A stretch of 64,000 bases of DNA from Alphaproteobacteria bacterium (GCA_965225945.1 CBDDBZ010000034.1:64001-128000); one strand, 5' to 3'; numbered from the stretch's first letter, positions 2,325 to 44,249 are shown. Numbers and translations: made by a program. The notes: a model not told the origin generated them from the sequence alone.

Positions 2325-5300
2325 ATGGCGGTTGATATCGCGGCATGGCTGGCGGAGCTCGGTCTGGAGCGATACGCCGAGGCCTTCGCGGAGAACGAGA
2401 TCGATGCCGGCGCGCTGCCGCACCTGAGCGAGGACGACCTCCGGGATATGGGCCTGGCGCTGGGGCCGCGGCGCAAGATCCTGGCGGCCATCGATGGTTT
2501 CGACCCGCAAGCCGAATTTACCCCGCCCGACGCGGCGCCGGCGCCCCCCGAGGCGGAGCGGCGGCAACTGACCGTGCTGTTCGTCGATCTCGTCGGCTCG
2601 ACCGCGCTCTCGCAAGCGCTCGACCCGGAAGATATGCTGGCGGCCATCACCCTCTACCAGAACACAGTCGCCGGCGTGGTGACGCGCTTCGACGGCCATG
2701 TCGCCAAATACATGGGCGACGGCGTGCTGTGTTATTTCGGCTGGCCCCGGGCGCACGAGGACGACGCGGAGCGTGCCGTCCGCGCCGCGCTCGCCGCCGT
2801 CCACGCGTTGCCGGGTCTTTCCGCGCCGAACGGCGAGGCGCTCGCCGCCCGCGCCGGTATCGCCACCGGTCTGGTCGTGGTCGGCGACCTGGTCGGCGAG
2901 GGCGCGGCGCAGGAGGAGGCGGTGGTCGGCGAGACGCCCAACCTCGCCGCCCGGATGCAAGCGCTGGCCGAGCCGGACCAGGTGGTCGTCGCGGAATCGA
3001 CACGGCAATTGCTGGGCAATCTCTTCGAGCTGGCGGATCTCGGCGGCCACGAGCTGAAGGGGTTCACCGGTCCGACGGCGGCCCATGCGGTGCTCGGCGA
3101 ACGCGCGGTCGAGAGCCGCTTCGAGGCCCGCGCCGCCGGCACCGTCGCCCAAATGGTCGGGCGCGATCACGAGCTCGCCCTGATGGGGGAGCGCTGGTCG
3201 CGGGCCCGCGATGGCGAGGGCCAACTGCTGCTGCTCACCGGCGAGGCGGGGATCGGCAAGTCGCGCCTGGTCCGGGCGATGATCGACGCGGTCGCGGAAA
3301 CACCTCACGTCCGCGTCAACCTCCAGTGCTCGCCCTATCACGCCGAATCCAGCCTCTATCCGGCGATCCAGCACATCACCTTCGCCGCCGGAATCGAGGC
3401 CGGCGACAGCGCGGACGAGAAGCTCGACAAGCTGGAAGCGGTGCTGCTGAACGACGACGCCGCCCTCTTCGCCGCCCTGCTGGATATCCCGGCGGAGCAC
3501 CGCTATGGGCCCCTGGAGTTGACCCCGCCGCGGCAGCGGGCGCGGACGCTTCAAGCTTTCGTTGACCAGTTCATCGCGCTATCGGCCACGCAACCGGTAT
3601 TGTTCGTGCTGGAGGACGCGCACTGGATCGACGCCTCCACCCTGGAGCTGCTGGACTTGGCACTCGATCAGGTGGCCACGGCGCCGGTGCTGTTGCTGAT
3701 CACCGCGCGGCCGACCTTCGCCCACGGCTTCGGCGGCCATCCGATCGTCGGCACCCTGGCGCTCAATCGCCTCGGGCGCGATCAAGTCTCGGCCATCGTC
3801 GCCGAGATCACCGGCGGCAAGACGCTGCCCGAGGAGCTGATGGAGGAGATCGCCGCCAAAACCGACGGCGTGCCGCTGTTCGTCGAGGAACTGACCAAGA
3901 CGGTGCTGGAATCGGGCGAGCTCAGGGACCTGGGCGAGCGCTACGAGCTCACCGGGCCGCCCGGCCGCCTCGCCATTCCCGCGACGCTGCACGATTCGCT
4001 GATGGCCCGGCTCGATCGCCTGCAGCCGGTCAAGGAAGTCGCCCAGACCGCCGCCTGCATCGGCCGCCAGTTCGACTATCCGCTGATCGCCCGAATCTCC
4101 CCGCTCGACGGCGTCGCGCTGGGCGAGGCGTTGGAGCAACTGGTCGCCGCCGAGCTGATCTTCCGCCGCGGCGTCGTGCCCGAGGCGAGCTTCACCTTCA
4201 AGCACGCGCTGGTCCGCGATGCCGCCTACGAGAGCCTGCTGCGGTCGCGCCGCCAGGCGATCCACGCCAAGCTGGTCGAGGCGCTGGAGGCCGACGGCGA
4301 GGCGCCCGCGGAGCTGATCGCCCGGCACGCGAGCGAAGCGGGCCTGAAGGAGAAGGCGATCGGGCACTGGAAACGGGCCGGCGCCGCCGCCTCGGCGCGC
4401 CCCGCCTACGAGGAGGCGGCCAGCCACCTCGAGGCCGCGCTCGATCTGGTCGCCCAGATGGACGATCCCGAAGCCTGGCGCGAGCGTGAGCTCGAGCTGT
4501 TGGTGCAGCTCGCGCAGATCCAAATGGCGAAATACGGCTACACCTCGGATGTGGCCGTCAGGACCTTCAAGCGCGCGAGTGCCATGATCGACGCCACCGG
4601 GAACATGGAGCTCCGCGTGGCCATCTATTACGGCATGTGGATCGGACCCTACCTCGGAGCCGATCATGCGTCATGTCTCGAACTCAGCAGCCGCTTCGTC
4701 GACGAGGTCGATCGCCAGGAGACGCCCATTCCGCGGATCATCGCGCACCGTATGCGGGCGGCGACGCTGATCTCCCTCGGGCGATCGGGCGAGGCCTTGG
4801 ATCACCTGGCGATCTCCTTCTCGCTATACCAGGAGCAAAGCGATCCGGATTTCGCCAACCGTTTCGCCCAGGAACCGGGCGTGCAGATCAAATGGCACCA
4901 GTTCCTCGCGCTCTGGATGTGCGGCCGGGTCGACCAGGCGGTCGAGGTCGCGCGGCAAGCCATGGATTCGGCCCGGGAACTCCAGCACGCCAACACCATC
5001 TGCTATGCGGCGCTGCATTGGGTCGTGCTTGCCATGTTGTGCCGCGATTACAAAATGCTCCGCCCGGTCAACGACGAGGCGCTGGCCGTCGCCACCCAAC
5101 ACGGCATGTCCTTGTGGATCGTCTACGGCGCAATGGGCGATCAGTTGGTCCGGAGCCGCGACGGCGACGAGGCCGCCTTGGAACGCATGGAGGCCATGTA
5201 CGCGGAATACCTGGCGAGCGGGGGCGGCCTCTGGATGACGCTCTACCTGGCGGAACAGGCCAAGGAATATCTGCGTTTGGGCCAGATCTCCCGGGCGAGC

Positions 5301-40915: not shown

Positions 40916-41520
40916 AGCCCCGTGAAGCAGTCCTTCGCGTCGCTCAGGTCTTCTTGCGCCTGTAGCGGAGCCGGCGTTTCTTCCGCTTGCCTTTCCGGAT
41001 CTTGGACGAACCGGGCGCCCTGTAGCGCCACCAGGCGATCTCGTTGACCGAGAAGATCGGCCGGTAGTGCCGGATCTTGGCGGCGTCGGCGACGATGGTG
41101 ATCTGGTTGTCGAGGATCAGCGACTTGCCGTTAACCTGGACCATCAGAATCGCGTGCGGCACCCTGAGGTTCATGTCCTGGACCACCAGGATCCGCATCT
41201 TGTCCTTCGGGAAGCCGATGGCGCGGAGCGAGAGATACTTGGCGATCGCGTAGTCCTCGCAGTCGCCGTTCTTGGCGAAGAACTGGGCGGGGGTGGCCCA
41301 ATAATCCTTCTTGCCCCAATTGACGGGATCGAGGATGTATCGGGACTTATTGTGGAAATTATTGATTTTATGTAACTACCCAGGTACCCCGCTCTTGACC
41401 GCGAGAGGATGATGTAGGTGGTCGCCGGGGCCGGGTTTCCGCCGCCGCGTCGTTGATCGTCTCTTGACTCCATAGAATCGGGCGTCTATGGGTTGCGCTC
41501 TCGTGTGACGGGAGCGGCGC

Positions 41521-42186
41521 GTGGAATATTTTGGGTCGAAGGCGACGAGCGGTCTGTGCCAGGCGCTGATTGCGCTGATGCCGCCGCACAGCGTTTACAT
41601 CGAGAGCCACCTGGGGGGCGGTGCGCTGATGAAGCGCAAGCCAACGGGCGTGCGCTCGATCGGCATCGACCGCGATGCGCAGGCGCTCGAGGCCTTTGCC
41701 TGTGACTACCCGGTCGAGTTGGTGCATGGCTGTGCCCATGCCTTTTTGGCCTCGTTCCCGTTTCTGGGCCCGGAGCTGGTCTACAGCGATCCCCCCTATC
41801 TGCACGCGACCCGCCGTTCGGCACGGCGCTATCGCTTCGACTACGAGGAGGTCGACCATGTCGCGCTCCTGGACCTGCTCAAGGATCTGCCCTGCCAGGT
41901 GATGGTCTCGGGCCATCCCTCGGCGCTCTATGACGAGATGCTGGCGGGCTGGCGCAGTCTGGCGCTGCAGGTGACGACCCAGGCCCAGGTGCGGACCGAG
42001 GTCGTGTGGTTCAACTTCGCGCCCGACCGGGTGCATTGGGCGAGCTACGCAGGCCGGAACTTCACCGACCGCCAGCGCATCAAGCGTAAGGCGGCCAACT
42101 GGGGCCGGCGTTACAAGGCCTTGCCGGCGGGCGAACGCCTCGCGGTGCTGGCCGCCATGATGGCCGTCGATGCCGAGGACCCGTGA
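41521..42186 (+). CDS. Compact Dam-like (D12 class) N6-adenine DNA methyltransferase
   Basis: YFGSK (motif X), YIESHLGGGA (I), IGIDRD (II), VYSDPPY (IV), VMVSG, EVVWFNF. Confidence 0.85.
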   Translation: MEYFGSKATSGLCQALIALMPPHSVYIESHLGGGALMKRKPTGVRSIGIDRDAQALEAFACDYPVELVHGCAHAFLASFPFLGPELVYSDPPYLHATRRSARRYRFDYEEVDHVALLDLLKDLPCQVMVSGHPSALYDEMLAGWRSLALQVTTQAQVRTEVVWFNFAPDRVHWASYAGRNFTDRQRIKRKAANWGRRYKALPAGERLAVLAAMMAVDAEDP

Positions 42187-43721
42187 CGCTGTCGCGCTGG
42201 CACGAGGACCTCGCCGCCCATGACGAGGCCTTCGCGTGCCTGCAAGATCTTCTTGACCCCTCATCCTTCGCAATCACAGTCGTCAAGGCCTTCCGGGAAT
42301 GGGGCCAGGGGCTGTTGCGCCTGGCCACGGCGCTCGTCCGGGAGAATGCCGCGCTCGAGCGGGAGAACGCGACCCTGCGGGACCGCATCGCCGAGCTCGA
42401 GCGGAGCGCGGCGCTTGACAGCACCACCAGCAGCAAGCCGCCCGCCAGCGACGGCCTGCGCAAGAAGAGCGGAACCCAGAGGCGCACCCGAAGCCAGCGC
42501 GGCAAGTCCGGCAGGCCAAGCGGCGGCCAGCCGGGCCACAAGGGAACGACGCTGGCGCGGACCGAGAGCCCGGACCATGTTGTGGATCATGACCCCTCCG
42601 CCTGTTCGGGCTGCGGCGCACCGCTGTCGGACGCCGACCGTCACCGCGCGCCCGTCTGTCGACAGGTCTTCGATGTGCCCGAGCCACGCCCCCTGGAGGT
42701 CACCGAACACCGCGCCCATCGCTGCCTCTGCGGCGCCTGCGCCACCGTGACAGGAGCCGTCTTCCCGGACGGCGTGACCGCCCCGGTCCAGTACGGGCCA
42801 CGCATCACCGCCTGGGTGAGCTACCTGCTGTACGCCCAGTTCGTTCCCGAGAAGCGCTTGGCCGAACTCATGAGCGACCTCTTCGCAGTGTCCATCTCCA
42901 CAGCCACGATCACCGCCATGGGCCGGCGAATCGCCAGGCGCTTCGAGCCCTTCCTCGCCCATGTCGCAGACGTGATCCGCACAGCGGTCCCGGTCAAGCA
43001 CCTCGACGAAACCGGCCTGCGGATCGCCGCCCGTACCCGCTGGCTCCACGTGCTGTGCACCCCATTCCTGACCGTCCTGCGCATCGGCGCGGGACGCGGC
43101 GATGTCGAAAAGGACCTCGAAGGCATCCTCATCCATGACGATTACGCCGCCTACTTCACCCTCAAGGGCGTGCGCCACGGCGCCTGCAACGCCCATCACC
43201 TGCGCGAACTCCAGGCCCTGATCGACATCGAGAAGGAAGACTGGGCAAAGAGCATGCACCGCCTCCTTGAGCGCGCACACAGGGCTACCCGCTTCTCCCG
43301 TGAGAACGGCCGCGACGTGCCCGCCTCCCTGGTGGCCCGGATCTCGCGGGCCTGGGCCCGCATCCTCGACCACGCCATCGCCTTCCACGAGGCGCAGCCG
43401 CCGCTCCGGACCGGCAAGCGCGGACGAAAGAAACGCCGCATCGGTCATAACCTCGCGCTCCGCCTCCGCAAGCACAAGGAGGGATGCCTGCGATTCCTCA
43501 CCGACCCGCGCACGCCGTTTACGAACAATGAGGCCGAACGTGACCTCCGAATGGCCAAGCTGCGCCAGAAGATCTCCGGTGGCTTCCGCTCCGAGAGGGG
43601 TGCCTACAACTTCGCCAGAATGCGTGCCGTCATCGCCACCGCCCGAAAGCAAGGCTGGAACGTCCTCCAGACCCTGGTGCATCCCGATCCGATGCAACTA
43701 ATCCCCCAACTGCGCCTCTGA
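42183..43721 (+). CDS. IS66 transposase (TnpC-type)
   Basis: Coiled coil, SSKPPASDG, GGQPGHKG, zinc finger, HLDETG, HDDY, CNAHHLREL, TNNEAERDLR. Confidence 0.93.
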   Translation: MTLSRWHEDLAAHDEAFACLQDLLDPSSFAITVVKAFREWGQGLLRLATALVRENAALERENATLRDRIAELERSAALDSTTSSKPPASDGLRKKSGTQRRTRSQRGKSGRPSGGQPGHKGTTLARTESPDHVVDHDPSACSGCGAPLSDADRHRAPVCRQVFDVPEPRPLEVTEHRAHRCLCGACATVTGAVFPDGVTAPVQYGPRITAWVSYLLYAQFVPEKRLAELMSDLFAVSISTATITAMGRRIARRFEPFLAHVADVIRTAVPVKHLDETGLRIAARTRWLHVLCTPFLTVLRIGAGRGDVEKDLEGILIHDDYAAYFTLKGVRHGACNAHHLRELQALIDIEKEDWAKSMHRLLERAHRATRFSRENGRDVPASLVARISRAWARILDHAIAFHEAQPPLRTGKRGRKKRRIGHNLALRLRKHKEGCLRFLTDPRTPFTNNEAERDLRMAKLRQKISGGFRSERGAYNFARMRAVIATARKQGWNVLQTLVHPDPMQLIPQLRL

Positions 43722-44249
43722 GAACACCGGCACCGCTACCAGCCCGGACCCCCACGATCCCTCACATACAAACGCTCGGGCCAATCAGACCTGGGTAGTT
43801 ACGATTTTATTGAGTTTACGAATGGTTCGCTCGGTTTTGACGCTTTCCAGGAAGGCCACCCAGGCCTTGTACTCGGCCTCGGTCTTGCCGCGTTCCCTGG
43901 CATAGCGCTCGAGCGTGCCCGTCCACTTCGGAAAGGCCTTCAAGCCTTCCTTGCGGGTCTCCATATAGCCGAAGACGCCCGGTTTGCCCTTGGCCGCTAG
44001 CGCCGGGGCGGGGGCAAGAGCGAGGCAGACCAGCGCCAGCGCCGCCGCCAGAAGTGGGCCGCCACGGCGCCGCGTCGAAGTCGACCGATCAGGCATGCTT
44101 GCCATATTACGCGCCGGGGCCCGAGAACCAAGTGACGACGCGCACGCACCCGTTCGCGGGCCGCCATGGCGGCCTCGGGCGCCTCGATTGAAGGCAATTT
44201 CGCGATATTGCGACTTTTTCCTCGGAATTCACCTCCTCCGACCCTATAT

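Follow-up and report, generated by a model that had tools for sequence, protein, structure and literature searches.

In a 64,000-nt stretch of DNA from an Alphaproteobacteria bacterium (GCA_965225945.1, CBDDBZ010000034.1:64001-128000; hereafter the window), we identified an insertion sequence (IS) of the IS66 family that is active and multi-copy in its genome. Upstream of its transposase gene (open reading frame 2, ORF2), it carries a second conserved gene, ORF1, encoding a compact protein with a Dam-like methyltransferase fold. Together with a short upstream region containing a palindrome, ORF1 forms a cassette that recurs in ISs with unrelated transposases (Table 1). This cassette is probably the built-in on/off regulator of the IS, and on balance we lean towards ORF1 repressing its own promoter and thereby controlling the transposase downstream of it, perhaps with the help of a methyl mark.

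A scan of species-representative genomes with ORF1 yielded 80 loci (69–100% identity), 75 of which have a transposase gene directly downstream, while the other five have none. The most frequent neighbor is a close IS66 transposase (34 loci, 12 metagenome-assembled genome (MAG) records; 65–99% identical to ORF2), followed by a distant IS66 transposase (22 loci, 16 records; 28–35% identical to ORF2, PF03050 4e-38), an ISAs1-like transposase with the domains DDE_Tnp_1_assoc and DDE_Tnp_1 (13 loci, two records), and a DDE_5 transposase (six loci, three records; PF13546 4e-27). Comparison of copies within genomes placed ORF1 inside the boundaries of the mobile unit in each IS type. The DDE_5-type IS spans 2.78 kb, has GCTCGACTTTGTACA at its ends, and makes a 3-bp duplication of the form TNA; the ISAs1-like IS spans 2143 bp, has CAGCAGTTCTCATTTTGGCC at its ends, and makes a 9-bp duplication; and the distant-IS66-type IS spans ~2258 bp, has GTAACTACTCACCCC at its ends, and makes an 8-bp duplication. 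At the DNA level, the window element resembles the DDE_5-type IS (L052) only within the cassette (83% over 761 bp), in which ORF1 is preceded by 73 bp of promoter plus leader and followed by another 18 bp. In all four IS lineages, the cassette has the same orientation and lies directly upstream of the transposase gene. According to ORF calls, ORF1 and the transposase gene share 8 nt in L025 and 13 nt in L058. No motif was found to be common to the ends of the four host IS types. Methylation of the ends, which the original prediction had offered as a means of regulating transposition, is accordingly unlikely to be general, and methylation or binding at the IS ends was rejected as a general mechanism.

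We then related ORF1 proteins from 36 representative loci (three with a stop codon) to the window protein and 12 outgroup proteins, using a quick tree search with support values from the Shimodaira–Hasegawa-like approximate likelihood ratio test only. The IS-borne ORF1 proteins formed one clade (support 99), apart from the other, long-branched family members. Within this clade, DDE_5-linked ORF1 nests inside the close-IS66 group (support 99), and ISAs1-linked ORF1 falls among the distant-IS66 group. Because ORF1 is 70–75% identical across lineages whose transposases share just 28–35%, we conclude that the cassette moved between IS lineages and did not co-diverge with their transposases.

Several further arrangements of the cassette were observed. 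Short derivatives that keep it but in which little or nothing of the transposase gene is left are present in L055-L057 (~3921-5053), L043/L044, and L070/L081/L091; in the case of L055-L057, one genome contains repeats of a ~1.1-kb unit whose ends are of the IS66 type. Two cassette-bearing IS copies stand head to head in L030 (1-6212), and two are arranged in tandem, ~2.1 kb apart, in L089 (2812-5566). One protein of 236 aa (P0127) joins the N-terminal two thirds of ORF1 to a C-terminal stretch resembling the end of an IS66 transposase, and probably reflects an internal deletion of an ORF1-bearing IS66 element.

At the protein level, ORF1 matched no Pfam family at E ≤ 0.01; the only entry to appear was PF02086 (E = 0.082; 13.1 bits, cut-off 22). 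The NCBIfam model TIGR00571 (dam) was matched at 2.3e-5 with a score of 24.2, far under its cut-off of 114.85, and the PHROGs family phrog_56 (DNA methyltransferase) at 1.1e-19. A profile built from 41 family members matched DpnM (8.5e-9) and E. coli Dam (1e-5). Its positions 2-69 align to DpnM 16-81 and its positions 82-159 to DpnM 184-266, so that the ~100 residues between the two blocks of Dam/DpnM, i.e., the alpha-class target-recognition domain, have no counterpart in ORF1. Motif I, which binds S-adenosylmethionine (SAM), and the DPPY motif (residues 90-93) of ORF1 align to DpnM and Dam; G32, D90, P91, and P92 are invariant among the 41 aligned family members, and E28, G34, and Y93 are nearly so. 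The AlphaFold (AF2) model (predicted local distance difference test 90.8; predicted template modeling score 0.84) consists of a Rossmann-type globular core followed by C-terminal helices at residues 181-199 and 203-219. Its best matches in the PDB are the folds of E. coli Dam, DpnM, McbE1, and T4 Dam (Foldseek E 1.5e-7 to 5e-6), with template modeling (TM) scores of only ~0.5. The original prediction of a Dam-like core that lacks the target-recognition domain and has DPPY near residue 90 was thus confirmed by profile alignment and structural model. The compact form is not special to this element, as it is the norm of a large family with 5554 cluster representatives at E ≤ 0.001 (521 at E ≤ 1e-30).

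The closest homologue of ORF1 that has been studied is Upf31 of plasmid pBP136. BLASTP aligned residues 1-218 of ORF1 with residues 1-222 of the 224-aa Upf31 (43% identity, E = 9e-65), and judging from this full-length similarity and the same domain layout, ORF1 is a Upf31-family protein. In the report by Elg et al. [quoted passage not shown] The same source describes repression of a 68-bp upf31 promoter fragment from 4.76 to 0.09 XylE units, with the autorepression shown for a hybrid R751/pBP136 Upf31. Repression required the C-terminal domain from about residue 180, modeled as a KorA-like dimerization domain, and the likely operator is an inverted repeat within the promoter (PMC11997246).

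The cassette of the window IS likewise contains a promoter-like region, in which the palindrome CATAG-N10-CTATG is embedded. In an alignment of 12 elements from the four IS lineages, TTGAC, ATAG, and CTATGG show no variation or almost none, and the 10-nt spacer varies freely. At least 120 nt of upstream sequence were available for 77 of the 80 ORF1 loci, many of which are copies of one element in one genome; TTGAC-N3-ATAG-N10-CTATG was found in 73 of these 77 (≤2 mismatches) and an exact ATAG-N10-CTAT in 62. The palindrome occurs once in the window and in none of 100 shuffles. Its 16 occurrences in the genome, compared to ~1.7 expected from base composition, all fall into the 16 IS copies. Similar arrangements precede related genes outside ISs. 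Four of eight plasmid homologues have an exact ATAG-N10-CTAT within ~100 nt upstream, and three of those carry two. A Pseudomonas plasmid (L179) has CATCG-N10-CGATG 28 nt before the start, in the same register after TTGACA. The pBP136 promoter contains an imperfect palindrome copy only (right half CGAGA), and an exact ATCG-N10-CGAT lies 101 nt before the start. Among 24 scanned viral loci, one has an exact ATNG-N10-CNAT upstream, and the others show different palindromes by eye; in the prophage-like viral contigs L182-L203, the region (~2890-3000) upstream of a homologue of 45–48% identity holds two palindromes, CACGGTCA-N4-TGACCGTG. The putative operator appears to differ between subfamilies, with its position kept.

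The original prediction had also drawn attention to a pair of GANTC sites in the putative promoter. Both are present in the window copy (GACTC at 41466-41470 and GAATC at 41475-41479), but they are not conserved in the 12-element alignment, and control of the promoter by a CcrM-type (GANTC) methyltransferase was rejected on these grounds. Downstream of the palindrome, a leader hairpin is predicted, with the Shine-Dalgarno sequence of ORF1 located in its 3' arm. Single-sequence folds place a hairpin at the equivalent position in 23 elements, with arm sequences that differ between IS lineages. By burying the Shine-Dalgarno sequence, the predicted hairpin could block translation of ORF1 from read-through transcripts.

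The genome to which the window belongs (6.27 Mb, 39 contigs; contamination estimate 5.58%) carries 15 full-length copies and one interrupted copy of the IS at 99.9–100% identity. The 8-bp duplications are perfect in 10 of these 16 copies, match at 7/8 positions in two, and are absent or unclear in four, and other genomic copies have duplications that differ from that in the window. All 16 ORF1 homologues of the genome lie inside copies of the IS, in line with the original proposal that the methyltransferase gene moved with the element. With 16 near-identical copies, 10 of them with a perfect duplication of their own, the arrangement is more than chance. Furthermore, contigs from public runs break at exactly 41372 and 43802 and then continue into different flanks. 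In total, 20 public runs from eight studies contain at least 81% of the sampled words of the element; a number of these runs carry the label sponge metagenome, and RNA libraries (three studies) account for eight. With regard to individual copies, G000:C38:239517-243982 is interrupted near its right end (element ~2273-2287) by ~2 kb of other DNA, and its outer 8-bp duplication CATCGAGG is still intact. The copies G000:C37:248802-251232 and C33:300329-302759 share identical flanks and the same duplication AAATATTC, which suggests a duplicated region or one locus assembled twice.

The same genome contains a sibling IS of 1596 bp with the terminus GTAACTGCCCAGGTA and 8-bp duplications (e.g., G000:C37:87504-89099). 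It encodes a single 486-aa IS66-type transposase, ~52% identical to ORF2, and no ORF1. About two dozen long transposase matches at 50–53% identity were counted for it, compared to the 16 copies of the ORF1-bearing IS. The terminus GTAACT[A/G]CCCAGGT is common to the window IS, related elements, and the sibling. Given this ORF1-less sibling, which serves as a natural comparator from the same cell, the window IS has the look of a single-gene IS66 relative that differs by ~0.8 kb of additional DNA ahead of the transposase gene, next to the left end.

A complementary sampling of metagenome contigs started from the transposase and gave 80 loci. Eight loci encode a transposase at least 68% identical to ORF2; six of them include upstream sequence, and ORF1 is directly upstream in all six. 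At the 72 loci with a transposase of ≤57% identity, 17 of which have at least 700 bp of upstream sequence, no ORF1 was found. On the strength of these two counts, ORF1 is, in this sample, the marker of one lineage inside a larger group of single-gene ISs. That the pair is a one-off capture or an assembly artefact is virtually impossible: nothing was found in its favor, it is refuted by the 16 differently flanked copies and by the six out of six transposase-first loci, the contigs of the 20 public runs speak against it as well, and the ORF1-transposase pairs in other genomes agree with the expectation, raised beforehand, that the capture is no isolated event.

Pairwise comparison of ORF1 with 16 relatives gave ratios of nonsynonymous to synonymous substitutions (dN/dS) of 0.15–0.28, a seventeenth pair being saturated at synonymous sites. 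For the co-resident transposase, dN/dS was 0.25–0.51 in eight comparable pairs of similar dS. By these ratios, purifying selection acts on ORF1 no less strongly than on the transposase. According to record titles, carriers belong to Alpha-, Beta-, and Gammaproteobacteria, Dehalococcoidia, Caldilineaceae, Tectimicrobiota, Binatia, Thermodesulfobacteriota, and Pontiella, and the carrier ISs are multi-copy in MAGs of at least six phyla. An element in a Dehalococcoidia MAG (L020, 3837-6289) is 84.7% identical to the window IS at the DNA level over its whole length, which points to a recent transfer of the IS between phyla.

We read ORF1 as an autorepressor because it is the sole trans-acting gene common to the carriers of the palindrome and because Upf31 represses its own promoter (PMC11997246). 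The ORF1 protein would bind CATAG-N10-CTATG as a dimer, perhaps methylating an adenine there, and binding would shut the promoter from which ORF1 and the tightly linked transposase gene are transcribed. Upon entry into a repressor-free cell, or while the operator is transiently free, a burst of transposase would be produced; after establishment, the accumulating ORF1 protein would keep the transposase level low. Since control would act at the cassette's own promoter, it would be independent of the type of transposase, which would explain why the same cassette was adopted by unrelated IS families and why its position is constant. Operator binding and repression would follow from the homology to Upf31, and co-transcription and methylation are presumed as well.

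Several observations weigh against this reading. The repressor role is derived from a homologue that shares less than half of its residues with ORF1, namely 43%, and part of the Upf31 phenotype is ascribed to KorB (PMC11997246), which the hosts of the IS need not have. A simple sigma-70 scan, whose rule demands that the second hexamer end in T, found no promoter-like site in 41300-43900, and the second hexamer TATGGG is weak. In the DDE_5-type IS, ORF1 and the transposase gene are separated by a gap of 67 nt, i.e., tight coupling is not universal. Decay of ORF1 is common as well: of the six upstream matches in the transposase-first sample, one is full and uninterrupted, three are partial, and two are split, and ORF1 contains a stop codon at three of the 36 tree loci. 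Two contigs from RNA libraries span the junction between ORF1 and the transposase gene (X1 record 3, 42057-43802; X5 record 21, 42078-43802), but such contigs are no proof of transcription, as DNA carry-over is possible and neither start, strand, nor level can be read from them. Lastly, the invariant DPPY motif and SAM-binding glycines argue that catalysis matters, which a pure repressor would leave unexplained.

This last point would suggest that ORF1 still methylates something, possibly its own operator only, which SMRT motif calling would miss. Taken further, the cassette might be a portable epigenetic switch, in which an enzyme of the Dam fold, having lost its target-recognition domain, is aimed by dimeric binding to its own operator and writes N6-methyladenine there; we regard this extension as speculative and rather unlikely. 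If it were true, unrelated ISs would gain a control of transposition that is coupled to entry or replication and independent of host Dam/CcrM, and a single site per element would explain the lack of a SMRT motif for Upf31.

The main rival to autorepression sees in ORF1 an orphan N6-adenine DNA methyltransferase that is active, has a relaxed or unusual specificity, and protects IS-bearing DNA (plasmid, phage, or transposition intermediate) from restriction or rewrites the host methylome. The clear Dam fold and the invariant SAM-binding and DPPY motifs agree with such an activity, and so do the family's occurrence on mobile DNA and the recent crossing of phyla by the IS. Homologues annotated as "DNA adenine methylase" (45–55% identity) were found in 189 plasmid records, 134 of them conjugative, with transfer, stability, and radC genes in the two neighborhoods inspected. 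Phage families match as well (phrog_56, see above), and 28 viral contigs encode homologues of 31–51% identity. The IS-borne form was seen neither in the plasmid collection, where all 189 records are <60% identical, nor among the 28 viral-contig homologues, all of which are ≤51% identical. Upf31, on the other hand, gave neither GATC methylation nor a SMRT signal in E. coli (PMC11997246), and a chromosomal IS copy is already host-modified and has nothing to gain from protection. The ORF1-less sibling IS is no less abundant within this genome, and the conserved palindrome and the fixed position before transposase genes would be left unexplained. A relaxed-specificity methyltransferase that shields transposition intermediates from restriction was among the ideas of the original prediction; with a homologue that shows no detectable methylation and represses its own promoter (PMC11997246), we consider it possible but unlikely, and it is not our leading reading.

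ORF1 could also be cargo without a role in transposition, i.e., a selfish or host-beneficial passenger such as a regulator of host genes. ISs with passenger genes (transporter ISs) are a known class in ISfinder usage, and the cassette-only and truncated derivatives described above fit as well. In that class, the gene lies within the IS ends, as ORF1 does, and is unrelated to transposition, which for ORF1 would hold only if the present reading were right. Upf31, moreover, alters the expression of many plasmid and chromosomal genes (PMC11997246). Throughout the four IS lineages, the cassette keeps to one place, directly upstream of the transposase gene, and to one orientation, which speaks against a mere passenger, as does the overlap with the transposase start in several IS types. 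No host regulon is visible either, with the palindrome found nowhere else in the genome, and purifying selection on ORF1 is at least equal to that on the transposase. Taken together, we judge this explanation to be improbable.

As to the class of the IS, ORF2 matches PF03050 (3.9e-41; score 141.8, cut-off 23.1), NF033517 (1.8e-86; score 290.7, cut-off 180), and DUF6444 (5.3e-10), with a weak match to zf-IS66, and homologues at ~80% identity align with it from residue 1. The assignment to IS66 made beforehand therefore holds, with PF03050 and NF033517 above their cut-offs. IS66 elements typically have terminal inverted repeats and an 8-bp target duplication; both are present here, as perfect 14-bp repeats and as perfect duplications in 10 of the 16 copies. 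The canonical three-gene layout, in which tnpA and tnpB precede tnpC, is not found, as only ORF1 and ORF2, two long ORFs on the same strand, fill the interior, the other listed ORFs being alternative frames of GC-rich DNA. The element also differs from the single-ORF (ISBst12-type) layout in its second conserved gene, whereas the 1596-bp sibling conforms to it.

The remaining anatomy agrees with what had been read from the window initially, i.e., ends that are 100% complementary, GATTTTAT on both sides, and two intact ORFs, with the stop codon of ORF1 overlapping the GTG start of ORF2 in GTGA (42183-42186; ORF calls, not mapped starts). The minus-strand gene at the insertion site, which encodes a transglutaminase-like cysteine protease (BTLCP), is cleanly split by the IS, also as predicted. 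Its left half (40944-41369) matches PF06035 (Peptidase_C93/BTLCP; 2.1e-16, profile positions 46-133/162), and its right half stays in frame as far as the duplication; searched alone in Pfam, the right half gave no match.

Table 1. Features of the ORF1-bearing IS and its insertion site; positions are counted from the first nucleotide of the window.
Feature	Position	Strand	Basis
Whole IS, IS66 family without tnpA/tnpB, 2431 bp	41372-43802	+	Copies in genome; contig break points
Left terminal inverted repeat GTAACTACCCAGGT	41372-41385	+	Inverted-repeat pair, 14 nt, 100% complementary
Right terminal inverted repeat ACCTGGGTAGTTAC	43789-43802	+	Exact reverse complement of left end, 14 nt
Target-site duplication GATTTTAT, 8 bp, left copy	41364-41371	.	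Read in sequence; identical to 43803-43810
Target-site duplication GATTTTAT, 8 bp, right copy	43803-43810	.	Read in sequence
Portable cassette (putative promoter and operator, leader, ORF1), ~760 bp	41448-42204	+	Only stretch of DNA similarity to DDE_5-type IS
Promoter-like region: TTGACT (41464-41469), 17-nt spacer, TATGGG (41487-41492)	41464-41492	+	Conserved motif
Palindrome CATAG-N10-CTATG within promoter-like region	41471-41490	+	Conserved motif
Predicted leader hairpin, 3' arm with Shine-Dalgarno sequence GGGAG (41510-41514)	41496-41516	+	Single-sequence folds
ORF1, 221 aa, Upf31-family protein, Dam fold, no target-recognition domain	41521-42186	+	ORF call and homology
ORF2, 512 aa, IS66-family DDE transposase, GTG start	42183-43721	+	ORF call and profile matches
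Interrupted BTLCP gene, 3' part	40944-41371	-	PF06035 match
Interrupted BTLCP gene, 5' part	43803-44105	-	In-frame ORF 43785-44105 running into IS end

ISs are usually thought to carry only genes needed for their movement, and we know of no function assigned to accessory genes of IS66 elements. In the present case, one unit of putative promoter, putative operator, and gene has been adopted by ISs with IS66-type, ISAs1-like, and DDE_5-type transposases. If ORF1 is a true repressor or writer of a methyl mark, this unit would represent a regulator that ISs can plug in to control their transposition. The biological setting of Upf31, so far a puzzling plasmid protein with a methylase fold and no detected methylase activity (PMC11997246), would also become much wider. 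Our searches of the literature, supplements aside, brought up no paper in which a Dam-like or Upf31-like gene is carried by an IS; two candidates for an earlier description, PMC11410982 and PMC9796809, are unrelated as far as their available text goes.

Among known systems, the closest studied protein is Upf31, and the closest IS type is the IS66 branch without tnpA/tnpB, which is the ISBst12 group of the ISfinder classification. The window element shares with it the IS66-type DDE transposase, DUF6444, the weak zf-IS66 match, termini beginning with GTAA, the 8-bp duplication, and the lack of tnpA/tnpB, the last as stated in the original prediction, but differs from it in that a further, conserved gene under a promoter of its own comes first. 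With regard to control, transposition of IS10 and IS50 is under Dam-dependent control, and InsA of IS1 is a small IS-encoded repressor. The likeness would lie in promoter gating of the transposase by a methyl mark or an element-encoded repressor, and in an activity coupled to cell entry or replication. However, IS10 and IS50 use the Dam of the host, and InsA is a DNA-binding fragment of IS1's own transposase, whereas ORF1 would be a regulator that has a methyltransferase fold and is encoded by a separate, portable gene. Structurally, ORF1 is matched best by E. coli Dam, DpnM, and T4 Dam, with motif I and the DPPY block in alignment; they differ in the ~100-residue target-recognition domain, which ORF1 lacks, and in the helical hairpin that ORF1 has in addition at its C-terminus, and relative to the Dam/D12 families ORF1 stays under the cut-offs of PF02086 and TIGR00571.

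Giant viruses contain Mariner transposons in which a DNA methyltransferase gene likewise sits beside the transposase (Bao and Jurka 2013, PMC3627910); the authors state that methyltransferases in transposons had not been reported previously. As described there, those elements differ from the present IS in their eukaryotic-virus hosts and in their unrelated methyltransferase families, which are paired with endonucleases and resemble restriction-modification systems. Upf31 of the IncP-1beta plasmids pBP136 and R751 resembles ORF1 in length class (224 vs. 221 aa), full-length identity, and Dam-like predicted fold, and its C-terminal domain, which starts near residue 180 and contains a conserved Trp, corresponds to the helical hairpin 181-219 of the ORF1 model; both genes have their own promoter with TTGAC followed by a palindrome. 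No transposase or insertion sequence is mentioned in the text of PMC11997246. The differences concern the setting and the putative operator: upf31 is a plasmid backbone gene, mostly of IncP-1beta, which its authors tie to the KorB network (PMC11997246), whereas ORF1 is the first gene of an IS, directly upstream of transposase genes, and the half-sites CATCG/CGATG stand against CATAG/CTATG in the IS-borne cassette.

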